Notes under the pieces: model-generated | What the model was told of the DNA's origin: nothing | What the model saw: only the letters and a program-made list of their open reading frames with translations | Database searches by the model: none | IMG/VR virus record: IMGVR_UViG_3300045988_183636 | Strand: one strand, 5' to 3' | DNA: 64,000 bases | Source of the DNA: a virus | In this document: piece by piece, positions 21,581 through 38,316 of the stretch | How the letters are laid out: the number at the start of each line of letters is the position of its first letter | Numbering within the stretch: the first letter of the stretch is position 1 | Position numbers and translations under genes: made by a program

Positions 21581-21720
21581 GTAAAGGTCATAAACCGGGC
21601 TGCCAGGGTTACCGGCTGGCAGAAATCCTTTCGATATTTGTTTACGCTTCCGGGGAAACCCGGAAAGGAGCAGGAGGACAGCAGCACATGCTGCTTCCGG
21701 GTCCGATTCCCGGATGCTTC
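21581..21720 (+). ncRNA. conserved structured 5' leader, copy A (shared ~95 nt core, then a tRNA-like T-arm minihelix)
   Basis: gtaaaggtcataaaccgggctgccagggttaccggctggcag...tccggggaaacccgga...ccgggtccgattcccgg; near-identical cores at 33143 and 38169. Confidence 0.5.
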
Positions 21721-21787
21721 TTTTACAAGACCGCACGAAGCGGCGCAAAAACCACATAAACATGACAAAATACAGGGAGATTAAAAA

Positions 21788-24091
21788 ATGAATCAGAATA
21801 AGAAGATAGCAGAGAAAAAATCAAGACCATACCAGCAGGAATGCATTGATAAGGTAGACAGCTTAAAAGAAGGAAGATTCCTGATTGCTCTTGCAACAGG
21901 GCTTGGGAAGACATGGATCTTCTCCCACTTTAAGAGATACGGAAGGGTACTTATTCTTTCACACAGGGATGAACTGGTCAACCAGCCGAGACGGTATTTC
22001 GACTGTAGTTTTGGCGTAGAAAAGGCAGAAAACCATTCCAATGGGGAAGAGGTAGTATCTGCGAGTGTTCAGACACTCAGCCATGACTCCCGTCTTAAGC
22101 AGTATAAGCCGGACGATTTCCACACGATCATCATTGATGAGGCGCACCACGCTGCCGCACCATCCTATAAGAAGATCTTAAATTATTTTTCCGGCGCTAA
22201 GCGTGTAATCGGTGTCACGGCAACTCCGAAGCGTGGCGACAACGTCCGGTTAGATGACGTTTTTAACGAGATTATTTATGCAAAGGATCTTCGTTGGGGG
22301 ATTAAAAATAAATATTTAAGTCCGGTGCACTGCCGGGAGGTCCGTGCAAAATATTCCCTGAAAGGCGTAAAAAAATCTATGGGGGATTTTAATGTATCCG
22401 ATTTGGACGGTTGTATTACGGAAGAAGCTGTAATAAGTGTTGCAAAAGTTCTTACAGACTGTCTCCAGGAGAATCGGCATATTCTTATTTATTGTACTAC
22501 TGTCAGAACCTGTAATTTCCTGAAGGCAGTAGTTGACAAACTGCTCCCGGAAAAAGAACGTGGCAGTGTTGCTGTTTTATCAGGGAAAACACAGGAAGAA
22601 GATAGAAAAAATATGCTTGATGGTTTTATGAACGGGAGTGTCCGCGCCATTATTAACTGCATGGTTTTAACAGAAGGTACAGATCTTCCTATTGCGGATA
22701 CCATTATCAACTTCCGGCCGACGTGCAACGCGTCTTTGTATCAGCAGATCATCGGAAGAGGAACCCGGCTCTATGAAGGTAAGGAAAACTGTTTATGCAT
22801 TGATATTCTTCCAGATGATGGCAGCGGGACAAGAAATCTGTGTACAGCTCTTACTCTTTTTGGTATAGATGCAAAACTTCTTGGAAAGAAACAGTCTCGA
22901 ATGCTTGAAGGTGAGATTGATCCGCTTGAGATTAGCGATGAAATTGCAGGACGATTTGCAGAACTTACAAAGGCGTATGAATATCGGTTGGAGCAGGTTA
23001 ATCGCTTTGTGCAGGAGCAGGAAGAAATTATATCTTCTGCGCGGAAGAAACCACATGCAGATTTAAGCGACCTTGCGCATGCAGTAGATAAATATAATTC
23101 AAAGAAAATGGATGAATTCCAAAATGATTATGATTTTCTTGGAATGGATTACTCACTTATGCCGGATACGGAACATCGTTATTGTATCAAACCTACATGG
23201 AATGACCATATTTACCTTGCTGATCCAGATGTTATGGGTAATACAACAGTTACGTTTGATCTTACTGCCAGTGTCGGGAAATATTATATCGGTGAAATGA
23301 AAATGCAGGATGCAATTTCATTTGTTCATGATTTTTGTATGGTATCTCCAGATTATATGAAATATTCCTGGAACGTGGCATTACAAGATGAATGGGGGAA
23401 AATAAAAGCAACTGAAAATCAAATTGGACGTCTTATGAATGAGTATGACGGGTTTCACAAAGGAAATATTAACAAACTTCAAGCATCCAGACTGATTGAT
23501 CTTGCCTCTCGTATTTCGAAGATGAAGGCAGAGGGGAAAATGATGCTTATTACACCAAGAATGCAGGAAAAAACAATTGATAAAAAAAAGAAAATGTTTA
23601 AGGAAATACTCGAAAAGGAACTGAGGGCAAAAGAGCAGGGGCGTAGTGAGTTTGGAGAATTCCAGTCGAAAATCTTTGCTTTGGCAGAAAAAAAGAAAAA
23701 AGACGAAGAGAAATTAAAGAACCAAAAGCCTTTGGAAGAAGAAATGCTCGAAAATGGGGCGATTACAGTTAATATTGCTGTTTTTAGTTCAAAAAAAACA
23801 GCAAGCGATGCGCAGATAAAATTTCTTGGTAATTTAAAAGATAAATTAAAAAACAGAGGAGTGGCTGTCGATAAAAAAATTCCTTATATAGGAATGGGAG
23901 CAGAAGAGGCAAGTGTATATATTACTATATTAAAAACGCTTGTAGATCGTAACGTAGACCTTATAAAATATGGTAAAAAAATTTATTTTAATCCAAATAC
24001 AATCATGAGTGTTGTATTAAAACTAAAGGACACTTCATCCAGAGAAATTAAATGTTGTATCCCGTTCGAAAAAATAGAAGAATTGAGATAA
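21788..24091 (+). CDS. SF2 DEAH-box helicase (ResIII-like) with a long Lys-rich C-terminal extension
   Basis: motif I ALATGLGKT, motif II DEAHH, motif III VTATP, motif VI QIIGRGTR; no HD nuclease domain. Confidence 0.75.
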   Translation: MNQNKKIAEKKSRPYQQECIDKVDSLKEGRFLIALATGLGKTWIFSHFKRYGRVLILSHRDELVNQPRRYFDCSFGVEKAENHSNGEEVVSASVQTLSHDSRLKQYKPDDFHTIIIDEAHHAAAPSYKKILNYFSGAKRVIGVTATPKRGDNVRLDDVFNEIIYAKDLRWGIKNKYLSPVHCREVRAKYSLKGVKKSMGDFNVSDLDGCITEEAVISVAKVLTDCLQENRHILIYCTTVRTCNFLKAVVDKLLPEKERGSVAVLSGKTQEEDRKNMLDGFMNGSVRAIINCMVLTEGTDLPIADTIINFRPTCNASLYQQIIGRGTRLYEGKENCLCIDILPDDGSGTRNLCTALTLFGIDAKLLGKKQSRMLEGEIDPLEISDEIAGRFAELTKAYEYRLEQVNRFVQEQEEIISSARKKPHADLSDLAHAVDKYNSKKMDEFQNDYDFLGMDYSLMPDTEHRYCIKPTWNDHIYLADPDVMGNTTVTFDLTASVGKYYIGEMKMQDAISFVHDFCMVSPDYMKYSWNVALQDEWGKIKATENQIGRLMNEYDGFHKGNINKLQASRLIDLASRISKMKAEGKMMLITPRMQEKTIDKKKKMFKEILEKELRAKEQGRSEFGEFQSKIFALAEKKKKDEEKLKNQKPLEEEMLENGAITVNIAVFSSKKTASDAQIKFLGNLKDKLKNRGVAVDKKIPYIGMGAEEASVYITILKTLVDRNVDLIKYGKKIYFNPNTIMSVVLKLKDTSSREIKCCIPFEKIEELR

Positions 24092-24160
24092 TAATATTAT
24101 ATTAAAATAAAAGTTTGTTACTATGTATAAAAATAAATACAATATTCTTTTAAAATTTTT

Positions 24161-24190
24161 TTGACGTTTGTTTAAATGGCGCAATATTCA
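24161..24190 (+). promoter_or_regulatory. class-1 promoter serving as leader promoter of CRISPR mini-array 1
   Basis: ttgacgtttgtttaaatggcgcaatattca, ~75 nt before the first repeat. Confidence 0.5.
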
Positions 24191-24265
24191 TAACGAAGGA
24201 AGTAAACAGTTAAAAATAATCCCACGGGGATAGAGGTTAGTGAATAGCTTTAAGCCACTGTTATA

Positions 24266-24499
24266 GTTGCACCACGCAAGGGTGCAGGGGTGAAATATTA
24301 TACTGAATCGTCGCTGCCTGCATAGATATAGTTGCATCCCTTATGGGATGTATGGGTTGAAATTCAATAGAAACAGATGCATTCGGAGGTGTTACAAGTT
24401 GCACCCCCGCAAGGGGTGCATGGGTTGAAAATAAGAAATGGTAGGAAGGAATTCAGATATGAACATTAGTTGCATCCCGCAAGGGTGCAGGGGTGAAGT
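24266..24499 (+). CRISPR. CRISPR mini-array 1 (type I-C-like repeats, 4 divergent repeats, 3 spacers)
   Basis: GTTGCACCACGCAAGGGTGCAGGGGTGAAAT / GTTGCATCCCTTATGGGATGTATGGGTTGAAAT / GTTGCACCCCCGCAAGGGGTGCATGGGTTGAAAAT / GTTGCATCCCGCAAGGGTGCAGGGGTGAAGT; spacer 2 is shared with array 4. Confidence 0.7.
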
Positions 24500-24658
24500 A
24501 AAAGGATGTTGCCAGATATGTCAACCAAACTCGACTATTGAATAAATAACCGAGCATGATTCCTTCGGAACTGCTGAATCATGTAGTCTGACTGGTGAAG
24601 CGATGGTATACATATTTGAACAAATTAAACAAAAATACAGAATCAGAGGGAAAATAAT

Positions 24659-25306
24659 ATGTCAAAAACAAAAGGACTATCAAAGAAGAAAAAATTACTA
24701 AAAACGCTCATACATAAATACCTTCCATTGCAGGTACTACTTACTGTCTTTTTGTATGCAGTAATTGTATTTATTAACATTCCAATTAATAAATGGCTTA
24801 CTCTCAACTGTCAGAAATGGTCAAGTGGGGAATATCATTTTTATGATGCATTTTTTATTCTTCCATTTGCTGAACTGTTAATTTTTGCCATTATGTCTGC
24901 CGTTATTTGCGCTGTTTATTATTTTGTCAGTGGAATAATCGCATATAGGAATTACTGTTACATTCCACTTACAGAAGATGAAATCAAGAAAAAAGGATTT
25001 AAAAATGCAGATGAGTATTTTGCTTATGTGTGCAACATGTGTTCTTATGGTTTTAAAAATAATAAAGACTACATTCTTGTTGGTGATGAAGACCTCCAAA
25101 AAATGTTAACTACCTGTCTGCAGGTATTTCCTGATAATGGGACAATTTTTGGAATAAACCGCCATATGGTACGAAATATCATATGGGATCCTGATTTTCT
25201 TTCCGCACTTGCACTAGCCAGTGACCAAAGGGCGGAAATCATCAATGGACGTGTTGTATTGTCTGGCACCACAAAAGATGGTGACAGAAAAGAATATAAG
25301 ATATAA
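24659..25306 (+). CDS. 2-TM membrane protein, array-adjacent paralog family member 1
   Basis: MSKTKG.SKKK..LK...; shares ~45% identity along its full length with the 46072 gene and its N-terminal domain with the 25581 gene. Confidence 0.65.
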   Translation: MSKTKGLSKKKKLLKTLIHKYLPLQVLLTVFLYAVIVFINIPINKWLTLNCQKWSSGEYHFYDAFFILPFAELLIFAIMSAVICAVYYFVSGIIAYRNYCYIPLTEDEIKKKGFKNADEYFAYVCNMCSYGFKNNKDYILVGDEDLQKMLTTCLQVFPDNGTIFGINRHMVRNIIWDPDFLSALALASDQRAEIINGRVVLSGTTKDGDRKEYKI

Positions 25307-25322
25307 AGCAAGGAGATATAAT

Positions 25323-25541
25323 ATGTCAAAGAAAGCATCAGAAACACCGGAGGTGCCATCATATATCCCTCCGGCAAGTGAAAAGGAAAAGATTATAGAA
25401 AAGATCCGAAAAAAAGGAATTGAATGCAAACCGGATGGTACCGGGATTCCAATATTCTACACAAATGACCCGAAAGTAATGGATATGATCCGAAAAGAGA
25501 TCAATGAACGATTTTCGTTCGGGTTTCATATTCGTCCATAG
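25323..25541 (+). CDS. hypothetical small protein
   Basis: RBS AAGGAGAT before ATG 25323. Confidence 0.45.
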   Translation: MSKKASETPEVPSYIPPASEKEKIIEKIRKKGIECKPDGTGIPIFYTNDPKVMDMIRKEINERFSFGFHIRP

Positions 25542-25580
25542 GGAAAATAATAGAAAATAAGATTATAGGAGAAATAGTAC

Positions 25581-25913
25581 ATGTCAAAGAAAAAAATATC
25601 AAAAAAGAAAAATGTATTAAAGGTGTTATGGAATGAGTGTATAACATTCAAGGTGTTAATTTTTATCATAGCATATGTAGTGCTTGCGTTTATTAATATG
25701 CCATTTGAAAAATGGCTCTCACTTTATTTCGAATGGGAAAAATTAAAGGATTATCAAGAAGTATTCATGGAGGAGATAACATTATTAGTAATTCTCCCTC
25801 TCATGGAGATAGCTGCTGTTGCATTAATTTGTTTTATTATCTATGAGTTTTTTTGCTCTGTCAGTAAGATGATTGCATCTGATGAAGTAATTTCGATTGA
25901 AAAGGAAGAATGA
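25581..25913 (+). CDS. membrane protein, N-terminal-domain-only paralog of 24659/46072
   Basis: MSKKKISKKKNVLKVLWNEC.. aligns with the 46072 N-terminus. Confidence 0.55.
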   Translation: MSKKKISKKKNVLKVLWNECITFKVLIFIIAYVVLAFINMPFEKWLSLYFEWEKLKDYQEVFMEEITLLVILPLMEIAAVALICFIIYEFFCSVSKMIASDEVISIEKEE

Positions 25914-25980
25914 TACGAAAAGAACACCGCTATTAGGTCAGAAATAAATAGCAGAGGTTTGCAGATATAAGGAGGATCGG

Positions 25981-26151
25981 AATGTGTACTTTAAAGGATA
26001 AGTTAGTGGAATGTGGAGCATGTGTAGCAGCTGTAATTCTTGTGTTGGCAGTTTGTTATGGACTAAGTTGGATTGTAACATGTGGAGTTATTAAGCTGAT
26101 TACGATGTGTTTTGGATTAACATTTAAGTGGTCCATTGCAACCGGTAAATG
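25981..26151 (+). CDS. possible small membrane protein (56 aa)
   Basis: RBS TAAGGAGGA 6 nt before ATG; two hydrophobic segments; below the ORF-track cutoff. Confidence 0.35.
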
Positions 26152-26408
26152 AGCTATGACAATATTAAATTTTATCATTGAGTGTTGGAAGAATTCTTGC
26201 GACGAAAAAATCAAAAGGAATTATGTTGAATCCCTTGCTAAAGTGGCGGTTTCAGTGGCCATCATTATTATATCTGTTTTATTATATTTGCACATATGAA
26301 ATGTATAACGGAAATGTATATTTTGGGGGAGGAGGGGTAAGTACAAACATAATTTTTAAAAAAGTAGCGCAAAGAAAGAATTCACTAATGCAGAAGGGGC
26401 GTAACAAT

Positions 26409-28231
26409 ATGATCAACGGAGAATTAGTTGTAGATAATTTTGCGGGCGGAGGAGGAGCTTCCACAGGAATTGAACTTGCTACCGGATACAGCGTAGACAT
26501 AGCTATTAACCATGATCCGGAGGCCATTAAGATGCATAAAGTAAATCATCCCAATACAAAACACTATTGTGAAAACGTATGGGAGGTTGATCCAGTAAAA
26601 GCCTGCAAGGGGCACCCTGTCGGTCTTGCATGGTTTTCTCCGGACTGTAAGCATTTTTCCAAGGCCAAGGGGGGAAACCGGTAGAAAAGAATATTCGCGG
26701 TCTTGCGTGGGTTGTGCTTAAATGGGCGGCACTTGTCAGACCAAGAGTTATCATGCTTGAAAATGTGGAAGAATTTCAGACATGGGGACCATGTATTCCT
26801 ATCAGGGATAAAGATACAGGACGCGTTATTGTCAGCATGGTAGGAAGGCATGACAGAGAGAAGAACGAGCCGCGTACGAGGGTTGCAGATCCAGGAGAAG
26901 TTGTTCCTGTGGATCGCCAGATATTCCAACCAGATCCTAAAAGGAGCGGCCAGACATACAAAAAATGGAGAAAGCAGCTAGAAGCACTTGGATATGAGAT
27001 AGATACAAAGGAACTTGTAGCAGCTGATTATGGCGCACCTACTATGAGAAAGAGATTCTTTATGATTGCACGGTGTGATGGCAAGCCGATTGTCTGGCCG
27101 GAACCAACACATGGACCGGCAGATAGTGAAGAGGTAAAGGCAGGACTGTTAAAACCATACGTTGGAGCGTATACGCAATTGGATTTTTCTCTTCCTTGCC
27201 CGAGCATATTTGATACGGCAGAGGAAATCAAAAGGAAATATGGAATACGCGCTGTACGTCCATTGGCGCAGAAAACAATGGATCGAATCGCAAGAGGATT
27301 GAAAAAGTTCGTATTAGACAATCCGGAGCCGTTTATTATCCAATGCAATCATGGTGGAGAGCGTAGACAAAACGACATCAAAGAGCCTTTACCTACTATT
27401 ACTGGAAAACACGGATATGGAATTGTGGAACCTAAGATTGTTCCATATATGGGAACCAATACAACAAATCATCCAGGTGGAAATTGTAAAAATCCTATAC
27501 ATACAATTACAACAGGAAATCAACAGTGCCTTATCAGCCCAACGCTGATTCAGTATCATTCCGAAACATCGAAGGATGAAGTCAGAGGCCAATCGATTGA
27601 AGATCCGATAATGACCGTGGATGGTTCGAACCGATACGGATTGGTCACGTCGTTTCTACATAAATATTATGACGGAGGATACACTGGAGCTGGTGATACT
27701 GTCGAAAATCCGTTACCGACAGTAACATCCTGGGATCATAACAGTCTGTGTGCAGTTAATCTGATCCAAATGAATAATCATTGCGATGGAAGGGACGTGA
27801 AGGAGCCAATTCCAACAATCACAGCAGGCGATGGTCATTTCGGAGAGGTTAGAGCATTTCTGATCAAGTATTATGGTCAGGGAACTGGACAGGATGTTAA
27901 GGAACCTTTGGATACGGTTACATCAAGAGATCGATTTGGTTTAGTTACAATTAATGGTACCGACTATAAGATCGTGGATATCGGATTGAGGATGCTTGAA
28001 CCGAAAGAACTGTATGGATGCCAGGGATTTCCAGATGATTACATCATAGACCGCGATTACACAGGGAAAAAATACCCAAGAAGCGAGCAGGTACGCAGGT
28101 GTGGAAATGCTGTATGTCCTCCGATTCCGGCTGCTCTTGTAAAAGCAAATCTTCCGGAATTATGCGTAGCGAAACGCACTGGGAATATGAAAATTCGTGA
28201 GGAACAGACCGGGCAGCTTAGATTTGCATAA
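26409..28231 (+). pseudogene. multispecific C5-cytosine DNA methyltransferase with tandem target-recognition domains, interrupted by a frameshift at a G6 homopolymer (26670..26675)
   Basis: motif I DNFAGGGGAS and motif IV SPDCKHFS in ORF 26178..26684; RGLAW..RP..IMLENVEEF (motif VI) plus repeated P.PT.T TRD-like modules and motif X GNAV in ORF 26714..28231; the two frames join if the run is G7. Confidence 0.75.
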
Positions 28232-28371
28232 ATTGCATAAATTGCTATACTGTAAAAAGAAAATGTAAATATTGCTATCATTTGTATTTTTATAGACGTT
28301 CATATGCGCAATACATAATTCTTTTTGAAAAAGTAATGAGATGGTAACAAAGAAAAAAGGAGAGTGAAAGA

Positions 28372-28830
28372 GTGGTTCAAAATTTTGAGGCGTATGGAGT
28401 TGAAATTACGGTAGAGAAACCAATTGCTGTATGCGTAGCGTGCTCATTTTGTGTAAACATAGATATGGCGGTGGATAAAAATGTTACTCATTTTTGTGAA
28501 ATTCTTGGGAAAGAAATGACTAATCAAGAAGCTGATAATAAACCTTGTTCAGAATGTCCAATTACATATAGAAATAAAGAGTCTTTAAATGAAAAGAAGG
28601 AGAAAGGAAAAATGTTGATAATAAGTATTGTAATTTTATTTATGGGACTTGTATACATGGGGGCTATTGGAGTTGAAACTTTTTCACGCTCATTAATTTT
28701 TATTATGATTTCCATCGTTGAGCTTTTTCTTATCGTGTATGCGGACCGAAAAGATTTTGAAGAAAAAAGAAAACGTGATCATTCCATAACTCAATATGAT
28801 CCGGATGAAGAAACAATAGAAGAGGATTAA
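28372..28830 (+). CDS. hypothetical membrane protein with a Cys-rich N-terminus
   Basis: 152-aa ORF with RBS AAGGAGAG. Confidence 0.5.
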   Translation: MVQNFEAYGVEITVEKPIAVCVACSFCVNIDMAVDKNVTHFCEILGKEMTNQEADNKPCSECPITYRNKESLNEKKEKGKMLIISIVILFMGLVYMGAIGVETFSRSLIFIMISIVELFLIVYADRKDFEEKRKRDHSITQYDPDEETIEED

Positions 28831-30287: not shown

Positions 30288-30321
30288 TTCAGAAAAATTT
30301 TCAAGAAATTTCTGATTTACT

Positions 30322-30350: not shown

Positions 30351-30391
30351 GTAATGAAGACGAAAATAAGACGATTTTGGAGGGAGAAAAA

Positions 30392-31115: not shown

Positions 31116-32900
31116 ATGAGTGGTTTACCATTTGATCCTATTATTATTGCGGTTGTCGCGGTCGTTGTGATCCTTATCGGCATACTTGCCAGCGGGTATG
31201 TCAAAGCGCCGGCAGACAAGGCATACATCATTTCCGGACTTAAGAAAGTTCCGAAGGTGTTAATTGGCCGGGCAGGAATTAAGATTCCTTTTCTGGAAAG
31301 AAAAGACGAACTTCTGTTAAAGCAGATCGGTATTGATATTAAAACCGGAGGCTATGTTCCAACGAAAGATTTCATCGGTGTTGATATTGATGCGATTGCA
31401 AAAATCCGTCTGATTTCCATGCAGGATGTAGGCAAAGAGAAAACCTATACCAGAACAATCGTTGATGAGATTGTTGACGGCAGCAATACAAAAGATGGAG
31501 ATAAAGAATATTCAACTCATACAGAAACTGTTACAATCAAGATTACAGAAGATATGGCGCGTGCGGCAATGCGGAATTTCCTTAATATGAAAGAATCCAA
31601 CATTGTTGAAGCTTTACAGGATTCTTTACAGGGAAATATGAGAGAAATCGTTGGTACGCAGACATTGCGTGCTTTGTGCCAGGATCGTAAATCTTTTGGT
31701 GATGAGGTTCAGAGCAAAGCGCAGCCGGATATGAATGCCCTCGGTGTATGGATCGAGTCCTGCAATATTCAGCGTATTGAGGACGAACAGGATCTGATCA
31801 ATGCTCTTGGTATGGATAACATGGCTGCTATCCAGAAGAGTGCAAGCATTGCAAAGGCAGAGGCTGACAAAGACGTTGCGATTGCACAGGCGAAGGCAGC
31901 AAGAGAAGCAAATGATGCAAAAGTCGCCGCTGATACGGAAATTGCTGAGAAGCAGAACGAGCTTGCAATCAAAAAGGCAGAATTACAGCAGCTCTCTGAC
32001 ACAAAGAAGGCGATTGCGGATGCTGCTTATAAGATTCAGGAACAGGAACAGCGTAAAGCGATTGAGACAGCAAAAGTTAATGCAGATATTGCAGAGCAGG
32101 AAAGAACTGTTGAACTTCGCGAGAAGGAAGCACAGGTTGCAGAACAGACACTTAATGCGACGGTAAAGAAGCAGGCGGATGCAGATAAGTACAGCAGACA
32201 GCAGGCTGCAGAAGCAAATCTGATTGAAAAATCCCGTCAGGCTGATGCAGAAAAATATCAGCAGGAGAAGGAAGCAGAAATCCAAAAGATTAAGGCAGAG
32301 GCCGATAAGGAAGCGAAGAAAAAAGAAGCAGAAGGTATTCTTGCAATCAAGAGATCAGAAGCAGAAGGTATCGCCGCTGTAGGTAAAGCAGAAGCTCAGG
32401 CAATCGAAGCAAAAGGTATTGCAGAAGCTCAAGCAATGGAGAAAAAAGCAGAAGCTTATTCAAAGTATAACAAGGCTGCTGTTGCAGAAATGACGATCAA
32501 AATGCTTCCAGAGCTTGCAGCCAAAGTTGCTGAGCCGCTTGGACAGATTGACAAAATCACAATCATCGGAGGCGGCGATGGCAGCAATGGTATCGAACAG
32601 GTTGCCGGGAATGTTCCTGTTGTTATGGCGAAGGTCTTTGAGAGTGTCAAAGAAGCTACAGGGATAGATCTGACAAGTATTGTTAATGCTGAGTCTTACG
32701 ATGCGAAGGTTAACCGCAATGTTAATTTAACCGGTATCAAAGATACGGTGGCAATTTCCGGCGGATCAAAGAGTGATACTGACGCAGATAAAACCGAGAA
32801 TTCCGGCATCGATTCTGATTTATCAGGAGAAAATGCAGAGGTCATCCGTTCTTTGGCAGAAAATGCTAATCAGGAATCAGCTGACAGTAATCTGGACTAA
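31116..32900 (+). CDS. flotillin-like SPFH/band-7 protein with a long coiled-coil
   Basis: N-terminal TM segment, SPFH core, then ~250 aa of A/E/K/Q-rich heptads. Confidence 0.7.
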   Translation: MSGLPFDPIIIAVVAVVVILIGILASGYVKAPADKAYIISGLKKVPKVLIGRAGIKIPFLERKDELLLKQIGIDIKTGGYVPTKDFIGVDIDAIAKIRLISMQDVGKEKTYTRTIVDEIVDGSNTKDGDKEYSTHTETVTIKITEDMARAAMRNFLNMKESNIVEALQDSLQGNMREIVGTQTLRALCQDRKSFGDEVQSKAQPDMNALGVWIESCNIQRIEDEQDLINALGMDNMAAIQKSASIAKAEADKDVAIAQAKAAREANDAKVAADTEIAEKQNELAIKKAELQQLSDTKKAIADAAYKIQEQEQRKAIETAKVNADIAEQERTVELREKEAQVAEQTLNATVKKQADADKYSRQQAAEANLIEKSRQADAEKYQQEKEAEIQKIKAEADKEAKKKEAEGILAIKRSEAEGIAAVGKAEAQAIEAKGIAEAQAMEKKAEAYSKYNKAAVAEMTIKMLPELAAKVAEPLGQIDKITIIGGGDGSNGIEQVAGNVPVVMAKVFESVKEATGIDLTSIVNAESYDAKVNRNVNLTGIKDTVAISGGSKSDTDADKTENSGIDSDLSGENAEVIRSLAENANQESADSNLD

Positions 32901-32916
32901 CAGAATATGTAATTTA

Positions 32917-32961
32917 AGACATATACCGGGGTACTTGCGTATTCTGGTATATGTCTTTTTA
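32917..32961 (+). terminator. rho-independent terminator
   Basis: agacatataccggggtacttgcgtattctggtatatgtcttttt. Confidence 0.6.
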
Positions 32962-33108
32962 TGCTTTTATGGTGAGAGTTTTATTTTTGATCATGGCGAA
33001 ACGATACCAAAGAAAGTCCGGTTTGCAGTGTACGAAAAATGCAACCACCGGTGCAATTTTTACTTCGAAAAGATCGGACTGGATATGGCGTAAGTTTTCA
33101 AAAAATCT

Positions 33109-33139
33109 TTGACGATTTTTCAAAAGGCGCAATATGTAT
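33109..33139 (+). promoter_or_regulatory. class-1 promoter
   Basis: ttgacgatttttcaaaaggcgcaatatgtat. Confidence 0.6.
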
Positions 33140-33142
33140 AGT

Positions 33143-33283
33143 GTAAAGGTCATAAACCGAGCTGCCAGGGTTACCGGCTGGCAGAAAATCCTTTCGAAAA
33201 ATGTTTACGTTCCGGGAAATCCCCGGAAAGGATAGTGGGTACGCAGCGCAAGTTATTCCGGGTTCGACTCCCGGATATCCTTT
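33143..33283 (+). ncRNA. conserved structured 5' leader, copy B (tRNA-like acceptor/T-arm minihelix at its 3' end)
   Basis: same ~95 nt core as A and C; AAGGATA-(hairpin)-CCGGGTTCGACTCCCGG-ATATCCTT forms an acceptor-stem + T-arm (TTCGACT loop) module. Confidence 0.5.
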
Positions 33284-33318
33284 TTCAAAATTGCAGGAAA
33301 AATGTGGAGGAAAAGAGA

Positions 33319-33624
33319 ATGGATGAACTGATCAAGAAACTTCGGATGTATGCAGACACATACAAAAAAGAACCAGCCGGACGGGAAGTTGAAGGTACCG
33401 TGGAATTGCTCGAAAATTCTGCAGATGCTTTGCAGGAAGCAGGGGAGGCTGTTCAAAAATTAAAGCAGAGATTTGTGGATGGAATAGATGTCCATTACCA
33501 GGGACATGATGCCGACGATTACATTGAGTGTCCTTTCTGCGGATACGAGGTTGCAGCGATCGACGATTACTGTGAGCTGCGCCCAAATCATTGTCCGAAA
33601 TGTGGAACAAAGCTGATATACTAG
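33319..33624 (+). CDS. zinc-ribbon protein
   Basis: CPFCG...CPKCG; start moved to MDELIKK. Confidence 0.5.
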   Translation: MDELIKKLRMYADTYKKEPAGREVEGTVELLENSADALQEAGEAVQKLKQRFVDGIDVHYQGHDADDYIECPFCGYEVAAIDDYCELRPNHCPKCGTKLIY

Positions 33625-33639
33625 ATATAGGAGGCTGGC

Positions 33640-33867
33640 ATGAAAGAATTGAGGAAGTTGTGCATGCACCCATTGTGCGATGCAGAGCCAAAAATGCATA
33701 CGATTTACGAATATATCGGAAAAGCCGGGACGAAAGGTACGACAGTTTTGTGGTTCCTTGAGATCCCAAAAAAGGAGCCAAAGTGTATGGGATCAGTGAG
33801 GAAGACCATGTTTCTCCGTATATGGAAGGCATGGCATTCCGGTATGCAGAATTCAAACCATACATGA
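33640..33867 (+). CDS. hypothetical small protein
   Basis: RBS TAGGAGG. Confidence 0.45.
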   Translation: MKELRKLCMHPLCDAEPKMHTIYEYIGKAGTKGTTVLWFLEIPKKEPKCMGSVRKTMFLRIWKAWHSGMQNSNHT

Positions 33868-33976
33868 TTGATGAGATTTACAGCAATGGATTCGTTGTCT
33901 GCCACGAGTGTTAGGATAAGACAAAAATGCGTGTCCAATTAACAAGAAGGAATATGCGGTAAGTAATGGAGATATT

Positions 33977-34456
33977 GTGGATATAAATGCAGAATACCAC
34001 AAAAGGGCATCAAATCTTGGCATGGAGAAGCAGAGGACTTACCTTCAGTATGAGATCTCCAAGCCAGATGTCATCAGAAAAGATCTTGAGACCGCAAAAA
34101 AGAGGCTGGAAAAGGCAAAAGAAAGAAATTTTAAAACGTTGGATGAGTGGGAAGAAAAAATTGAAGCTTATACGAAAGTGTTGGAAGACAGCAAAGTATC
34201 TTCCTTGTTTTACAATGATATTTCTAACGCCATTTCGGACGGAACAGCACAGTGCCGTATCTGTACCTTCGTTTGGCAGGGTAAATGGAAATATACGGAA
34301 AATATTTCCCTTGGAGTGTGCGTCGTGATCAAGCACATGGGGTACACCTACATTTTTGGCACAAGTCCAGACAGCCAGTATTCTCCATGTTTTGCAGTAT
34401 GGGAAAGCGAAGGAGAACCAGAGCTGGAAGAAGAAAACTACCTTATAGTCAAGTAA
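33977..34456 (+). CDS. hypothetical protein (GTG start)
   Basis: GGAG 5 nt before the GTG; 159 aa. Confidence 0.4.
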   Translation: MDINAEYHKRASNLGMEKQRTYLQYEISKPDVIRKDLETAKKRLEKAKERNFKTLDEWEEKIEAYTKVLEDSKVSSLFYNDISNAISDGTAQCRICTFVWQGKWKYTENISLGVCVVIKHMGYTYIFGTSPDSQYSPCFAVWESEGEPELEEENYLIVK

Positions 34457-34518
34457 GAAAGAAGCCGGGGAATCCCGACTTTTCTGCTGCATTGTGTGTA
34501 TATTTTAACGCCGCCTGC

Positions 34519-34591
34519 GGGATTCGAACCCGCGGATAAAGAGTTCAAAGCTCCCTGCGTTAACCTTTTCGCCAAGGCGGAGCACACCCGG
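34519..34591 (-). tRNA. tRNA-Gln (anticodon UUG), no encoded CCA
   Basis: manual fold: 3-bp D-stem, anticodon loop CUUUGAA, T-arm GCGGG-TTCGAAT-CCCGC; 1:72 mismatch. Confidence 0.6.
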
Positions 34592-34592
34592 A

Positions 34593-34660
34593 AGGACTCG
34601 AACCCTCGTTACCGGTTTTGGAGACCAGTTTCTGTCCATCAGACAGGTGCATAACAGGCG
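34593..34660 (-). tRNA. tRNA-Trp (CCA), compact 68-nt form with a reduced D-arm
   Basis: anticodon arm CUGGU-CUCCAAA-ACCGG matches Trp; T-arm GAGGG-TTCGAGT-CCTTC; D region is only a 4-bp stem with a 5-nt loop; acceptor stem has two G.U pairs. Confidence 0.45.
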
Positions 34661-34664
34661 ATAA

Positions 34665-34735
34665 TGGAATCGAACCATTGTTTTCTGAGTCAGAATCAGA
34701 TGTCTTACCATTGAACGAATCGCCCAGTATCCCCA
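34665..34735 (-). tRNA. tRNA-Gln (CUG)
   Basis: anticodon loop UUCUGAC; 3-bp D-stem; T-arm AATGG-TTCGATT-CCATT. Confidence 0.6.
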
Positions 34736-34737
34736 AA

Positions 34738-34812
34738 GGGACTCGAACCCTTAACCGACAGATTAGAAATCTGTTGCTCTTTCCAATTGAGCTATGGGGA
34801 TATATAGCGCAG
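34738..34812 (-). tRNA. tRNA-Arg (UCU)
   Basis: D-arm GCTC..GAGC; anticodon loop UUUCUAA in stem ACAGA/UCUGU; T-arm AAGGG-TTCGAGT-CCCTT. Confidence 0.65.
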
Positions 34813-34818
34813 ACACCG

Positions 34819-34907
34819 GGGATCGAACCCGGACAGCGGGTGTGCCGCATGCCACATTAGCAGTGTGGAGGGGTACCATTTACCTTTATATGTCTGCATA
34901 AGAGGCA
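34819..34907 (-). tRNA. tRNA-Ser (GCU), long variable arm
   Basis: 89 nt; anticodon loop CUGCUAA in stem CCACA/UGUGG; T-arm CCGGG-TTCGATC-CCCGG. Confidence 0.55.
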
Positions 34908-34912
34908 TCGGA

Positions 34913-34984
34913 GGGGATCGAACCCTCGCCTTCCGGGTTGCAGCCGGACGCCTTCGCCGTTTGGCTACGATGCCATATAATTCT
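34913..34984 (-). tRNA. tRNA-Cys (GCA)
   Basis: anticodon loop CUGCAAC in stem UCCGG/CCGGA; T-arm GAGGG-TTCGATC-CCCTC. Confidence 0.6.
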
Positions 34985-35014
34985 TCCCGATAAGAGAAGA
35001 TGAGCGCTGGGGCA

Positions 35015-35098
35015 GGGAGTCGAACCCTGATATCCTTTCGGAATGACGGTTTTCAGGACCGTTGCTTTACCAGTTGAGCCACCACAGCAAAAATAAAA
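35015..35098 (-). tRNA. tRNA-Ser (UGA)-like, long variable arm, unusual C33
   Basis: 84 nt; anticodon loop CCUGAAA; variable stem UCC-gaaa-GGA; T-arm CAGGG-TTCGACT-CCCTG. Confidence 0.5.
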
Positions 35099-35333
35099 GC
35101 ATACACCTCTCAATCGAAAGATGTATGCTTTGCAATTCCAGGTATTTCCAATATTCTCCCGGAAATTTCCCTACAATGACCACATTTCTTTCAATTTGAG
35201 ACAATATTTATTTGCACGACAACTACGCCAGATACATGACTGCGACTGACTCATACTTGCCTGTGAATATTGTCTCATTACTGCTGTAATCATTGATTTT
35301 CCCTTCCTTTCCTTGGTTTTCTTGAATATTTAG

Positions 35334-35407
35334 TGTGTCTGGTGGGACTTGAACCCGACGACCCCACGATTAAAAGTCGCGTGCTCTGCCAACTGAGCTA
35401 CAGACAC
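35334..35407 (-). tRNA. tRNA-Lys (UUU)
   Basis: canonical fold: acceptor GTGTCTG/CAGACAC, D-arm AGCTCAGTTGGCAGAGC, anticodon loop CUUUUAA. Confidence 0.7.
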
Positions 35408-35412
35408 ATAAG

Positions 35413-35484
35413 CGGATCAGGAGGGAATCGAACCCTCATCTTCCGGTAGACAGCCGGATGTACTAGCCGCTATACTACAGATCC
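35413..35484 (-). tRNA. tRNA-Asp (GUC)
   Basis: anticodon loop CUGUCUA in stem UCCGG/CCGGA; T-arm GAGGG-TTCGATT-CCCTC. Confidence 0.6.
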
Positions 35485-35488
35485 ATAA

Positions 35489-35561
35489 AGCTCCCGTCCG
35501 GCTTCGAACCGGAAACCTTCTGATTACAAGTCAGATGCACTACCAGTTGTGCTACAGGAGC
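35489..35561 (-). tRNA. tRNA-Thr (UGU)
   Basis: D-arm GCACAACTGGTAGTGC; anticodon loop CUUGUAA; T-arm TCCGG-TTCGAAG-CCGGA. Confidence 0.65.
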
Positions 35562-35567
35562 AGGAAC

Positions 35568-35638
35568 ACTTCCGACGGGTGCTGCCCCGCTATCTCCGCC
35601 GTGACAGGGCGGTGACTCTGTTGTTTGTCCTCGGAAGT
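35568..35638 (-). ncRNA. non-canonical tRNA-like element (8-bp acceptor-like stem, anticodon-like arm CCGCC-CUGUCAC-GGCGG, 4-bp T-like hairpin, no D-arm)
   Basis: ACTTCCGA...TCGGAAGT closing stem; sits inside the tRNA array at tRNA spacing. Confidence 0.35.
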
Positions 35639-35645
35639 AAATAAG

Positions 35646-35727
35646 TGCGCCGGGGAGGACTCGAACCTCCGGTGTTTCTTTGTGGCTGATTTACAGTCAG
35701 CTGCTGTCGCCTCTGAGCCACCGACGC
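35646..35727 (-). tRNA. tRNA-Tyr (GUA), long variable arm
   Basis: 82 nt; anticodon loop CUGUAAA in stem GCUGA/UCAGC; T-arm GGAGG-TTCGAGT-CCTCC. Confidence 0.6.
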
Positions 35728-35732
35728 ATAAG

Positions 35733-35804
35733 CTGGTCCGGAGGGTCTCGAACCCTCAACGCCCCGGTTAACAGCCGGGTGCTCTACCATTGAGCTACGG
35801 ATCA
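35733..35804 (-). tRNA. tRNA-Asn (GUU)
   Basis: D-arm AGCTCAATGGTAGAGC; anticodon loop CUGUUAA; T-arm GAGGG-TTCGAGA-CCCTC. Confidence 0.65.
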
Positions 35805-35805
35805 G

Positions 35806-35877
35806 AGCATGTGACGGGTCTCGAACCCGCCCGTCCTGCTTGGAAGGCAGGTGTGCCGCCAACAACACTTCACATGC
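35806..35877 (-). tRNA. tRNA-Gly (UCC)
   Basis: anticodon loop CUUCCAA in stem CCUGC/GCAGG; T-arm with TTCGAGA loop. Confidence 0.6.
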
Positions 35878-35942
35878 ATGCGGATAAAAGAAGTGCCTGT
35901 TTTCTCTTATCCATTCAGTTTTTTTACCGCATCGCTGCGGAG

Positions 35943-36014
35943 TGGACAGGAGTGGTAACGATCCACCCTGTAAGGATTTTCAGTCCTTCGCTAATCCATC
36001 TCAGCTACCTGTCC
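35943..36014 (-). tRNA. putative tRNA-Phe (GAA) with a non-canonical T-loop (ATCGTTA)
   Basis: perfect 7-bp acceptor GGACAGG/CCTGTCC, U8, anticodon stem AAGGA/UCCUU with loop CUGAAAA; lacks the TTCGA T-loop signature. Confidence 0.4.
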
Positions 36015-36460
36015 ATGGCTTTTTCTGCAATAAAAAAGCCGCATCAAGAAATTTCCTCTTCTCTCTGCGGTCATCTGCGTTTTGCAATATTTCGGTTTTA
36101 AGTGCCTGGTTTAAAATCGAAATCGACCGCGGGAAGGTGTATCATAATAGTTCTGTCCCCATGTTTTCCCGGATTTTGAGCATGAGAAACTAAACATATT
36201 GCTGAAATCGCCGTATGTTCTACAATCATTATTAAAATTTTTACTACTCATCATCTTTAACATGGTTTTCTTTTCCTTTCATTTTAATTAATGCTGGATA
36301 AACAAAAAGCCCGTCACTTAACTCAAAGCTACACATCCAAATAGCTCTGAGTTAAAAGACAGGCACTTCTTTTATCTCATGCACCTATCATATCATACTG
36401 ATCGTGAAGTGTCAACAGGAAATTTAAAAAAGGTTATTTTTGGTTATTTTGGTTATTTTT

Positions 36461-36500
36461 CAAAATAAAACAAAATAAAACAAAATAAAACAAATAAAAA
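36461..36500. repeat. short tandem repeat (AAAACAAAAT)n x4
   Basis: caaaataaaacaaaataaaacaaaataaaacaaataaaaa. Confidence 0.6.
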
Positions 36501-36530
36501 TCTCCGCCAAAATAGACGGAGATTTGAAAA
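36500..36530. terminator. terminator hairpin downstream of the minus-strand gene
   Basis: aatctccgccaaaatagacggagattt. Confidence 0.5.
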
Positions 36531-37151
36531 TTAACAGGTTAATTCGTAGTCGTACAGATCGAGCGGCGTTTTGTTTCCGCTGGACCACTCAAACTCTTCG
36601 TTGTCCCAAATGCTGCGGGCGTTGTTCAGATTGATCTCATCCGTCAATACCTTTTCTTCGATATTAATGAACCGTTCCAAAGATTCTTTGAAGCGGTTGA
36701 TGACTTCCTCGGGATTCTTTGAATGCCAGCTGTATTCGTCGAAAAACCTTCCACTGGCGGTAATTGTTAATTTCTCGCCGTTATCCGACAATCCAGATAG
36801 TTCAAGTGTAACCATTCCCTCGGAAATATCGCTATAATATTCGCCTGGTTTGTTGGTATCGTTGATTTTGTTCCCTAGTTCTTCCGCTTTTTCCATCATG
36901 CCCCAAATTTCCCCTGGAAGCGTAAGGTAGTCTTCTGGATAGTATTCCACGGTTGGGTTGATTTCCTCTTGCAGGAGATCTTCAACAAAATTGTCTCCTT
37001 TAAAAATAGCAAAAGAGTCGACACCTCTTGCGGAAACCTCAACTTTCCCGCATTTGCATGGGAATATTTTAAAAAGTCTTCTATCTCGAGTGTCATAAGC
37101 TACTGAAAAAATGCCGCATTCTTTGCATTTAAAATTTCTTTGTGTTTTCAT
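36531..37151 (-). CDS. hypothetical protein with an N-terminal zinc-ribbon
   Basis: start moved to MKTQRNFKCKECG (RBS GAAGGGAG); minus-strand class-2 motif at 37180..37200. Confidence 0.55.
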   Translation of the reverse strand: MKTQRNFKCKECGIFSVAYDTRDRRLFKIFPCKCGKVEVSARGVDSFAIFKGDNFVEDLLQEEINPTVEYYPEDYLTLPGEIWGMMEKAEELGNKINDTNKPGEYYSDISEGMVTLELSGLSDNGEKLTITASGRFFDEYSWHSKNPEEVINRFKESLERFINIEEKVLTDEINLNNARSIWDNEEFEWSSGNKTPLDLYDYELTC

Positions 37152-37179
37152 GATTTTTCTCCCTTCATCAATGGTTTTA

Positions 37180-37200
37180 TTTACACTTTTAATATGAAAT
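37180..37200 (-). promoter_or_regulatory. class-2 promoter-like motif (minus strand)
   Basis: the reverse complement reads atttcatattaaaagtgtaaa. Confidence 0.45.
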
Positions 37201-37234
37201 ATTAAAAATATTTCAAAAAATTTCCCGGAAATTT

Positions 37235-37266
37235 TTGACGAAATTTCAAAAGGCGCAATATATGTA
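37235..37266 (+). promoter_or_regulatory. class-1 promoter
   Basis: ttgacgaaatttcaaaaggcgcaatatatgta. Confidence 0.6.
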
Positions 37267-37289
37267 ATGAAAGGAGGAGGAAATACAAA

Positions 37290-37622
37290 TTGAAATGTTT
37301 GACATGCAAGAAACACTGGTCGCAGGGAGGCCGCTGTTCAGAGAACGTGAGAAACTGCCTGCATTATGAGGAAGAACCAAGAGGAAAAATGGTCCGCACA
37401 GAACTGTCTTTTCGTATGGATGCAGAGGCGGAAACTCCGGTGGTCAGATTTGGAGAGAAAATACTGGTTTCCGATGGTTCAAAAGCGGTCGAGATGACTG
37501 TGGTCAAGATCAACTGGGTTAATCTTCGGGATATGCTCTGCAATGTATCCGCGGATTATCATGAGAATGAGATGCCGCGATTTGAGAAAGAAAAGAAGTT
37601 CAAAGCATTACATGGAAAATAG
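37290..37622 (+). CDS. hypothetical protein
   Basis: RBS AAAGGAGGAGG; 110 aa; stop abuts CRISPR mini-array 2. Confidence 0.5.
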   Translation: MKCLTCKKHWSQGGRCSENVRNCLHYEEEPRGKMVRTELSFRMDAEAETPVVRFGEKILVSDGSKAVEMTVVKINWVNLRDMLCNVSADYHENEMPRFEKEKKFKALHGK

Positions 37623-37728
37623 TTGCATTCCAGTGGAATGCATGGGGTGAAAGAAATAGGCAAATCGCATGACAATTTCTGAAATTAAATTGTTGCGCTC
37701 CCGTGGAGGGGGGCGTATGGATTGAAAT
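37622..37728 (+). CRISPR. CRISPR mini-array 2 (2 divergent I-C-like repeats, 1 spacer)
   Basis: GTTGCATTCCAGTGGAATGCATGGGGTGAAAG ... GTTGCGCTCCCGTGGAGGGGGGCGTATGGATTGAAAT. Confidence 0.55.
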
Positions 37729-37781
37729 GTGGAATCCTGTGATTGGCACATACTTGGGTGTAGTGCAGAAAAAGTGACCCA

Positions 37782-38057
37782 TTACAGATCACTTTCGATG
37801 AAAATTTGCTTTGCGATTTTTCCGATCACCCAATTTGGAATGTCGCTGCGGCATCCAGAATGGATTTCTCCGTTTTCAACAAAAAAGAATGCGGATTCTT
37901 CCGTTTTCATGCGGTCTAAAGCTTGCGCAGAAAAATATAAGGAATGGTGGAAGTCGCATCTTTGTGCCTCCTCATATGTATGGACTTCCTCTATTTTCCC
38001 ATCGATCAGGCTGACACAGCCGGACCAGAACTCTTTTCCTTCGAATATTGCTGCCAT
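37782..38057 (-). CDS. hypothetical small protein
   Basis: RBS GAAAGGAG; minus-strand class-2 motif at 38083..38105. Confidence 0.5.
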   Translation of the reverse strand: MAAIFEGKEFWSGCVSLIDGKIEEVHTYEEAQRCDFHHSLYFSAQALDRMKTEESAFFFVENGEIHSGCRSDIPNWVIGKIAKQIFIESDL

Positions 38058-38082
38058 GTTTTGCTCCTTTCAAAATACTTTC

Positions 38083-38105
38083 GTTTACACTTTCAATATG
38101 AAATG
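38083..38105 (-). promoter_or_regulatory. class-2 promoter-like motif (minus strand)
   Basis: the reverse complement reads catttcatattgaaagtgtaaac. Confidence 0.45.
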
Positions 38106-38134
38106 AAAATATTTCAAAACATTTCCAAAAACTT

Positions 38135-38167
38135 TTGACGATTTTTTAAATGGCGCAATATGTATCA
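38135..38167 (+). promoter_or_regulatory. class-1 promoter
   Basis: ttgacgattttttaaatggcgcaatatgtatca. Confidence 0.6.
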
Positions 38168-38168
38168 T

Positions 38169-38316
38169 GTAAAGGTCATAAACCGAGCTGCCAGGGTTAT
38201 CGGCTGGCAGAAATCTTTTCGATATTTGTTTACACTCCGGGGAAACCCGGAAGGGGTAGTGAGGACGCAGCGTGTGCTGTTTCCGGGTTCGATTCCCGGG
38301 TATCCCTTTTGACTGC
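38169..38316 (+). ncRNA. conserved structured 5' leader, copy C (tRNA-like minihelix GGGTA..CCGGGTTCGATTCCCGG..TATCCC), part of a ~420 nt 5' UTR
   Basis: near-identical to copies A and B over ~95 nt, then a hairpin plus acceptor/T-arm module. Confidence 0.5.

Follow-up and report, generated by a model that had tools for sequence, protein, structure and literature searches.

How does one replicon come to carry the same structured RNA in front of genes that have nothing in common? The question is raised by a 64,000-nucleotide (nt) stretch of DNA from IMG/VR virus record IMGVR_UViG_3300045988_183636 (the whole stretch is referred to here as the window), in which a leader element of about 145 nt occurs three times, as copies A, B and C. 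The element has a two-part layout: an approximately 85-nt 5′ core with two hairpins is followed by a 3′ module that resembles part of a transfer RNA (tRNA). It is conserved at the level of RNA, and its 3′ module is a covarying junction that carries the T-loop signature of tRNA. We regard the element as a candidate RNA family without a described match, one that belongs with tRNA-like modules or structured leaders and is not a categorically new system.

The 31-mer GTAAAGGTCATAAACCGNGCTGCCAGGGTTA has exactly three matches in the window, at 21581, 33143 and 38169, all on the + strand, whereas no match is expected by chance (100 dinucleotide-preserving shuffles). The three copies of a structured leader described in an earlier note, made from the sequence alone, are thus confirmed, and all of the sub-features named there (hairpins, motifs, T-arm and enclosing stem) were located in each copy. 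Their order is a CUGCCAG-N9-CUGGCAG hairpin, UUUCGA, UGUUUAC, a UCCGGG-loop-CCCGGA hairpin, a variable hairpin and a T-arm, UCCGGG-UYCGAYU-CCCGGR. Each copy starts 7 nt downstream of a promoter that we call class 1, with the −35 element TTGACR at 21547, 33109 and 38135 and with GGCGCAATAT invariant in all three promoters. Mean column identity among the copies is 85% over a stretch that opens around 60 nt ahead of the RNA start and closes with a short U run; directly past the U run the likeness stops. The shared core is near-identical, as the earlier note had it, but spans about 85 nt rather than 95 nt. Copies A, B and C stand before genes for, respectively, a helicase, a zinc-ribbon protein and a nucleoside-hydrolase-like protein; that the downstream genes are unrelated had been noted before. 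The 3′ module always lies 30–65 nt ahead of a ribosome-binding site or ahead of the next RNA domain. The latter is the arrangement in copy C, which is separated from its gene by 270 nt that hold a conserved hairpin and a second tRNA-like module; the leader stretch 38312–38493 recurs in four related metagenomic loci (L014, L028, L038 and L043). On L043 the long hairpin CGAUAACCGCCAG...UGGCGUGAGAACUAUCG is found with no detectable 5′ core because the contig is cut at that point.

In the 3′ module, a closing stem of 7–9 base pairs (bp) encloses a purine linker, a variable hairpin and a T-arm capped by a T-loop; a short run of U comes next. The T stem has 6 bp, is closed by a U-A or U·G pair and is stacked directly on the closing stem, giving a continuous helix of 13–14 bp. 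A purine linker of 6–8 nt takes the place of the D-arm, and the middle hairpin has a 4-nt loop (ACAU, GCAA, GUGU or GUAA). The likeness to a tRNA acceptor and T-arm that had been pointed out earlier therefore stands, on the strength of covariation and the T-loop, although a mere minihelix, with a 5-bp T stem inside a stem of 6–8 bp, gives way to a D-armless three-way junction with one free T-loop position.

The helices of this junction covary. Full-length copies by themselves give compensatory changes at four closing-stem pairs. A covariance model (R1) also recovered weaker matches to the module without a core, located at 38494–38555 between copy C and its gene and at L014:1920, L028:4350, L028:9285, L038:4375 and L043:27. 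In an alignment of 11 diverse modules, compensatory changes are present at 8 of the 14 pairs, with 95.5% pairing. Model R2, built from that alignment, gathered 26 distinct modules, in which compensatory changes affect 10 of the 14 pairs and the paired share of cells is 96.7%. None of 500 shuffles matched the observed values, and slid controls paired at 38–60%. Read on the − strand, pairing falls to 91.8%, and G·U cells outnumber A·C cells by 24 to 6.

The loop is conserved alongside the helices. Numbered as in tRNA, the T-loop has U at the equivalent of U54 in 23 of the 26 distinct modules, C at C56 in 25, G at G57 in 23, A at A58 in 23 and U at U60 in all 26; in the three exceptional loops, positions 1 and 5 are altered jointly, to A and U. 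These positions are preserved even where the T stem itself is altered (UCAGGG/CCCUGA, UCGGG/CCCGG, UCCGG/CCGGA). The first residue of the linker is G without exception, and the fifth is G in 25 of 26 modules (columns 11 and 15); by analogy with G18 and G19 of tRNA, this pair of guanines could lock the T-loop. Covariation and the loop signature together make it well supported that the 3′ module is an RNA structure and that it is tRNA-like.

The module also occurs on its own. A scan for an acceptor stem plus T-arm gave four non-tRNA matches on the + strand, the three copies and 41475–41542, compared with about 0.5 matches in each shuffled sequence on both strands. The junction at 41475–41542 has the same architecture behind a different 5′ part, with a closing stem GGAAUCC/GGAUUCC and a T-arm UCCGG-UUCAACC-CCGGA. 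Modules without the core end other leaders or non-coding RNAs at 38494–38555, at 41475–41542, on L043 and at L028:9335, so the module behaves as an independent terminal unit. The transcript that ends in the second of these (41369–41545, + strand) holds no open reading frame (ORF), is strongly folded (z = −4.0), comprises a 5′-terminal stem, two hairpins and the tRNA-like junction, and lies directly upstream of a cas operon promoter; it may be a separate non-coding RNA gene.

Table 1. Positions of the leader copies, their parts and associated features in the window.
Feature	Position	Strand	Details	Score
Class-1 promoters	10719, 12134, 21547, 24161, 30322, 33109, 37235, 38135, 41334, 41596, 58352	+		
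Class-1 promoter, copy A	21547..21573	+	TTGACA-N11-GGCGCAATAT; leader begins 7 nt on	
5′ core, copy A	21581..21664	+	GUAAAGGUCAUAAAC; P2 21600-21622; UUUCGA 21629-21634; UGUUUAC 21639-21645; P3 21649-21664	111.8 bits (model R3)
tRNA-like three-way junction, copy A	21664..21725	+	closing stem AAAGGAGCA/UGCUUCUUU; linker GGAGGAC; hairpin AGCAGC-ACAU-GCUGCU; T-arm 21696-21714; then U run	69.7 bits (model R2)
Helicase ATG, downstream of copy A	21788	+		
Class-1 promoter, copy B	33109..33135	+		
5′ core, copy B	33143..33227	+	P2 33162-33184; P3 33211-33227	108.1 bits
tRNA-like junction, copy B	33226..33286	+	closing stem AAAGGAUA/UAUCCUUU; T-arm 33257-33275, loop UUCGACU; then U5	73 bits
Zinc-ribbon ORF start, downstream of copy B	33319	+		
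Class-1 promoter, copy C	38135..38161	+		
5′ core, copy C	38169..38251	+	P2 38188-38210; P3 38236-38251	109.3 bits
tRNA-like junction, copy C	38250..38311	+	closing stem AAGGGGUA/UAUCCCUU; T-arm 38282-38300, loop UUCGAUU; then U4	65.2 bits
Leader continuation, copy C	38312..38493	+	conserved long hairpin CGAUAACCGCCAG...UGGCGUGAGAACUAUCG (~38384-38433)	
Second tRNA-like junction, copy C leader, without 5′ core	38494..38555	+	closing stem AUGGGACA/UGUUCCAU; hairpin 38526-38544, loop AUCGUUU; then U5	73.2 bits
Start of 242-amino-acid gene, downstream of copy C	38586	+		
tRNA-like junction, 3′ end of ORF-less ~180-nt transcript	41475..41542	+	promoter 41334	

The 5′ core is more conserved than the module, and its fold is ambiguous. 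RNAalifold gives a closing helix (positions 1–5/61–65), a short CGRG/UUCG helix, the 7-bp hairpin P2 and the hairpin P3; a pseudoknotted alternative, with AAAGG 3–7 paired to CCUUU 47–51 and UAAAC 11–15 to GUUUA 60–64, fits equally well. The nested fold pairs 97.9% of core cells and the pseudoknotted fold 96.6%, neither above shuffles, and the two cannot be told apart on the present alignment. Of the stems proposed earlier, the closing and T stems covary and the core stems do not, because the core columns hardly vary. A true compensatory core change is present in one variant (G7A with C47U; L014:5474 and L030:3233), and in the L038 lineage nucleotides 1, 2, 6, 9 and 11 are altered with no compensation in any candidate 5′ helix. 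The first nucleotides are pairable in all copies (GUAAA/UUUAC or UAAAC/GUUUA). Pairing of a loop with the 5′ flank (CCGR/YCGG) and a GGUU/AACC loop pairing were considered and dropped as unsupported or sterically unlikely by eye. The UUCGA at positions 50–54 is invariant in every copy that has a class-1 promoter; a remnant with no promoter (L034:14595) retains neither the hairpin nor the motif, which points to selection where the element is transcribed. A search of the window with filters off found no diverged extra core. The core is therefore a conserved orphan motif with two candidate folds.

Conservation acts on RNA, as the earlier note had proposed. The copies differ by 1-nt insertions and deletions, on which ground a coding explanation was rejected; in the core G·U cells outnumber A·C cells by 37 to 3, and core pairing drops from 97.9% to 88.0% if the − strand is read. 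Together with the G·U excess in the module, these observations mark the element as one conserved as RNA, on the + strand.

Metagenome contigs scanned with a gapped pattern gave 26 loci, all from the human gut, and further copies came from the surroundings of helicase homologues, in lineages whose helicases are 73% and 71% identical, for a total of around 25 distinct element sequences in metagenomic relatives. The element stands at no fewer than six orthologous positions, each before an unrelated gene; the six downstream products are the helicase, the zinc-ribbon protein, the nucleoside-hydrolase-like protein, a 530-amino-acid protein, a 265-amino-acid protein and a chemoreceptor, the last of these preceded by a degenerate copy. 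Both copies on L038 bear a lineage-specific 5′ change, AGAAAAGUUAAAAAC. Searches of IMG/VR with exact and degenerate DNA patterns returned no true match (a single hit, L001, lies within a coding region, has no hairpin and is attributable to chance), and no helicase relatives were found in that database. The element was not matched by blastn in INPHARED phages or PLSDB plasmids, nor by pattern in GTDB representative genomes, and model R1 found no copy in relatives with 45–49% helicase identity or in the contexts of flotillin and nucleoside-hydrolase-like homologues (L040–L054 and L062–L069). The family is thus confined to one lineage of human-gut contigs of more than 260 kilobases (kb), which also limits the depth of the covariation analysis. 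We found no description of this RNA in the literature.

Among known RNAs, none of the 4,227 Rfam models, riboswitches included, matched the three sites at its gathering threshold, in agreement with the earlier failure to place the core in a riboswitch class. At E ≤ 10 the element drew chance-level matches only, of which the tRNA-like families were the sole thematically consistent ones: tRNA-Sec (14.6 and 16.5 bits; threshold 47), Deinococcus Y RNA (RF01053; 12.9 and 19 bits; threshold 80; tRNA-like part only) and mascRNA (RF01684; 14.1 bits; gathering score 42.5; E = 5.5). ARAGORN called 14 true tRNAs in the window and no leader module. The element is tRNA-like in shape and lies outside the tRNA, mascRNA and Y RNA families. 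With tRNA (RF00005 and RF01852) it shares an acceptor stem that runs on into a T-arm with a T-loop, but it has neither the D-arm nor the 7-nt anticodon loop. The canonical tRNAs of the same replicon likewise have a 7-bp acceptor-type stem, a UUCGANU-type T-loop and no encoded CCA; they are arrayed on the opposite strand, whereas the modules sit inside messenger RNA (mRNA) leaders and have a longer stacked helix.

Two other systems invite comparison. Bacterial Y RNAs (YrlA; RF01053) are similar in size (about 120–150 nt), have a tRNA-like domain with a T-arm and occur on mobile elements, and their weak covariance-model match falls exactly on the tRNA-like domain of the leader. However, they are separate genes with a long 5′/3′ terminal stem that holds the Ro-binding site, whereas the leader element is the 5′ part of mRNAs and its consensus fold has no conserved terminal helix. 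Pfam scans of 40 ORFs of the window, itself a part of a replicon of more than 260 kb, turned up no TROVE/Rsr gene, and with neither such a gene nor a terminal stem the Y RNA identity was rejected. The mascRNA of MALAT1 and MEN-beta (RF01684), an instance of the ‘tRNA punctuation’ known from polycistronic transcripts, is a tRNA-shaped module in a longer transcript, at the boundary of two products, with an acceptor stem, a T-arm with a T-loop and no decoding anticodon loop. There, RNase P forms the 3′ end of the upstream product and RNase Z frees the tRNA-like piece, and the same outcome is predicted for the leader. The differences are that mascRNA belongs to the eukaryotic nucleus or organelle, with a long non-coding RNA as its upstream product; the leader belongs to a bacterial megaplasmid, lacks the D-arm entirely and has the promoter-proximal 85-nt core upstream.

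The reading that we tentatively favour is of this kind. The module would act as tRNA-like punctuation, at which cleavage by RNase P and RNase Z, with some termination at the U run, splits a core RNA from the mRNA. That the transcript is cut, by which enzymes and what then becomes of the core are inferences on our part. Host RNase P would cut on the 5′ side of the junction and RNase Z past a discriminator-like U, within the U-rich trailer, while some RNA polymerases would go no further than the U run. This would free the 5′ core as a small stable RNA and leave the mRNA with a defined, short 5′ untranslated region; with the same cassette on at least six unrelated operons, processing would be coordinate and would feed one common pool of core RNA. 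What favours this reading is the recurrence of the module as a terminal unit, the selection on its T-loop and the tRNA biology of the replicon. All seven array tRNA genes with trailers read lack an encoded CCA, and the window encodes a CCA-adding enzyme (3114–4496, + strand; PolyA_pol head, tRNA_NucTran2_2 and HD domains). CCA-less tRNA genes in Firmicutes depend on RNase Z-type 3′ processing, so such maturation is already part of the biology of the replicon. A bolder version is possible but less probable: the cassette would be a bacterial counterpart of MALAT1–mascRNA, in which one promoter, an 85-nt regulatory or structural RNA and a D-armless tRNA mimic precede at least six operons, host RNase P and RNase Z free a common small RNA whenever one of them is transcribed, and the mimic is perhaps CCA-tailed by the plasmid enzyme.

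Several observations weigh against tRNA-like punctuation. The stacked helix of 13–14 bp exceeds the 12 bp that RNase P measures, and the module lacks not only a D-arm and a 7-nt anticodon loop but also a CCA. The second T-loop position, equivalent to position 55, is free (U, C or G, with U in 13 of 26 modules); one orthologue variant has A at position 56, and in modules of the type found second in the copy C leader (loop AUCGUUU) A takes the place of U54 and U that of A58. At the orthologous locus in L016 and L025 the T-arm is deleted while promoter, core and gene are retained, so the module is dispensable there and core and module are separable. Punctuation also leaves the role of the conserved core unaccounted for, and the position of the U run, directly past the closing stem and just before the ribosome-binding site, would also suit an intrinsic terminator or attenuator.

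A conditional transcription attenuator is the close rival of punctuation, and a possible reading in its own right. Here the core would be a sensor or recruitment site, the junction and U run a terminator, and a factor (a small ligand, a plasmid RNA-binding protein, a NusG paralogue or a modification of RNA polymerase, as with HK022 put or EAR) would set read-through of a regulon of at least six operons. The layout is typical of Firmicute attenuators, with a promoter-proximal leader in which a GC-rich hairpin and closing stem are followed by U3–6 and end 30–65 nt before the ribosome-binding site; a consensus scan scored all four modules as terminator-like. Riboswitch and T-box platforms, HK022 put, EAR and LoaP-type leaders similarly stand in multiple promoter-proximal copies before unrelated operons, with a conserved RNA and then a hairpin and U run shortly before the ribosome-binding site, and allow alternative pairings. 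The U run tends to be longer (U5–6) at the final module before a gene than at an internal one (U3–4), and a core that is conserved above its module, together with the different 3′ hairpin carried by L016, resembles an aptamer with a variable expression platform.

The pairing potential of the leader might also allow switching. It has four exchangeable segments (AAAGG 3–7, UCCUUUC 46–52, GAAAGGA and UCCUUUU), and the stems of P3 and the T-arm are identical (UCCGGG/CCCGGA; for example, 21649–21664 and 21696–21714, and likewise in copies B and C). The pairing of segments 2 and 3 lies within 1.5 kcal/mol of the minimum free energy (MFE) in copy B and is the MFE fold of the nascent transcript, but the penalty is about 6 kcal/mol for copies A and C, and the alternative pairings do not covary. 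Branched terminators are unusual, and the tract of 3–6 U, which begins 5–6 nt past the T hairpin, directly past the branched closing stem, is largely paired with the upstream A run of that stem and has just 3 U in several orthologues. A terminator has no need of a T-loop, yet the loop is kept as the stems covary, which indicates selection beyond the needs of a plain terminator hairpin. The regulated genes are non-metabolic and show no ligand-type association; no Rfam riboswitch or EAR family resembles the leader in sequence or by covariance model, and no candidate regulator or cognate factor was identified in the window. Even so, the core may be a new ligand- or protein-sensing riboregulator with a tRNA-shaped terminator.

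We consider it unlikely that the leader is simply a stabiliser of the 5′ end of the mRNA or a translation-control leader, in which a paired 5′ end and compact fold would block decay of the RNase J1/RppH type, or in which Shine–Dalgarno-like purine tracts (AAAGGAG and AGGAGG) would hold ribosomes as a Stab-SD, with no cleavage or termination. The 5′-terminal nucleotides are pairable in all copies, and other class-1 transcripts (10753 and 41369; folding z-scores of −3.7 and −4.0) likewise open with a 5′-terminal stem; but a simple 5′ hairpin would do for this purpose, 8 of the 11 class-1 promoters have no element and the 5′ changes in L038 are uncompensated. The purine tracts do lie within the 5′ strand of the module and the linker, and copy A as a whole folds with a z-score of −4.4; copies B and C, by contrast, have weak scores (−1.5 and −1.8), and the conserved T-loop and invariant UUCGA would go unexplained. 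Least probable is that the RNA is functionless and the conservation reflects a DNA-level operator for a repressor downstream of the promoter, or a relic tRNA fragment (for example, from an att site) spread with a duplicated promoter cassette: P2 and P3 are perfect, near-invariant DNA palindromes, the 5′ changes shared within L038 suggest gene conversion or concerted evolution and an uncalled tRNA-like gene of the array has the T stem CCGGG/CCCGG, but the compensatory changes at 10 of 14 junction pairs, the strand-specific, G·U-compatible substitutions in core and module, the divergence of acceptor-like stems that stay paired, unlike att-site relics, and the lost hairpins of the promoter-less copy all argue against it.

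The replicon that carries the element is probably a giant extrachromosomal element of human-gut Clostridia, a ‘Hodor’ conjugative megaplasmid. The helicase downstream of copy A is found with identical sequence on human-gut metagenome contigs of 264–354 kb and is indexed in 758 assembly blocks. In addition to the CCA-adding enzyme, the window encodes an NAD-dependent ligase, TnpB, a BspA-type leucine-rich-repeat protein, an LPD1 protein, DNA methylases, flotillin, Cas5c, Cas8c, a PcfJ-like protein, an HD protein and 14 tRNA genes, and holds several degraded type I-C mini-arrays. The large gut contigs and this gene set indicate that the replicon is not a typical phage. In related contigs (L040–L042) a helicase with 49% identity adjoins ParA, sortases and SpaA pilins, and the nearest relatives of the flotillin beyond the lineage of the replicon itself (around 60% identity) are from Lachnospiraceae and Oscillospiraceae. 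Hodor megaplasmids were described from the human gut in a 2026 preprint (PMC12934698) as conjugative elements of more than 200 kb with type I-C CRISPR–Cas systems and degraded arrays, a sortase/pilin module, ParA, TnpB insertions, and an HD (MOBH-like) nuclease with a separate helicase; tRNAs, promoters and non-coding RNAs go unmentioned in it. The GC content of the window, 40.4%, is below the reported range of 44.6–47.1% (PMC12934698), and no Rep_3 or type IV secretion system genes were seen within the window.

The tRNA array occupies 34508–36014 on the − strand, and a further tRNA lies at 52911 on the + strand. Within the array, a tRNA-like sequence at 34809–34897 (− strand) was called by neither the Rfam tRNA model nor ARAGORN; its parts are a 7-bp acceptor stem, a T-arm CCGGG-UUCGAUC-CCCGG, a long variable arm and an anticodon loop CUGCUAA (GCU, serine type), and its T stem is the same as that of the leader modules. 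Type I-C mini-arrays or solitary repeats are present at 24283–24432, 37695–37729, 39317–39420, 41010–41230, 41676–41706 and 45290–46009. They adjoin cas5c (41716) and cas8c (42387), with a degenerate repeat inside the cas operon leader (promoter 41596), and the spacers at 24364 and 41110 are 94% identical. A link between CRISPR and the leader was rejected, as none of 21 spacers or post-repeat segments matched it and the core hairpin is unlike the repeat. IS200/IS605-type insertions (Y1 transposase plus TnpB) also occur, one of which splits a copy C-type leader from its gene (L038:4905–6938); the window has a full TnpB gene (8732–9994) and, near its end, a 253-nt partial repeat of it that is 98% identical (63117–63369). 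At L034:3154–5034 a reverse-transcriptase (RVT_1) ORF, probably that of a group II intron, splits the LPD1 gene, which is intact in L036 and L037.

The class-1 promoters reported ahead of the three copies are indeed there, although they are not specific to the element: the promoter block TTGACGATTTTTCAAAWGGCGCAATAT has 11 occurrences on the + strand of the window, and the leader follows only three of them. The others precede short plain leaders, the cas operon (41596), a CRISPR mini-array (24161) and the structured RNA that has no ORF (41334). Among GTDB genomes the promoter pattern matched just two: in the chromosome of Roseburia faecis JCM 17581 (L058:7591) the block lies ahead of a type I-C CRISPR repeat, and in the Lachnospiraceae isolate MGYG-HGUT-00136 (L055, L059 and L060) it occurs four times, in each case without the element. 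The leader is thus an add-on to a subset of these promoters and not part of the promoter itself. The non-canonical −10 region of class 1 suggests that a dedicated sigma factor or activator is at work. Two further strings were set aside: a T-arm-like one in the leader of promoter 10719 is one strand of a long stem and forms no tRNA-like junction, and GGTTCGATACC at 4808 (− strand) is inside an ORF. A second repeated intergenic motif, TTTCATATT-N5-6-GTGTAAAC, is present at 2216, 5571, 6201, 8087, 16577, 18589 and 20835 (+ strand), with mirror copies in reverse orientation at 5535, 16548, 37180 and 38084, one example being immediately ahead of the copy C promoter. It often follows a terminator-like hairpin and T run, and may be a second class of promoter.

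The probable megaplasmid host moves the biological frame of this element away from a phage-centred reading. On this replicon, one strongly conserved type of promoter drives leaders, non-coding RNAs, CRISPR mini-arrays and a cas operon. If confirmed, the element would be a structured-RNA family from newly recognised and very abundant megaplasmids of the human gut, and a bacterial case of mRNA leaders in which tRNA-like modules serve as terminal units or punctuation. It provides a handle on how such a replicon co-ordinates unrelated operons.

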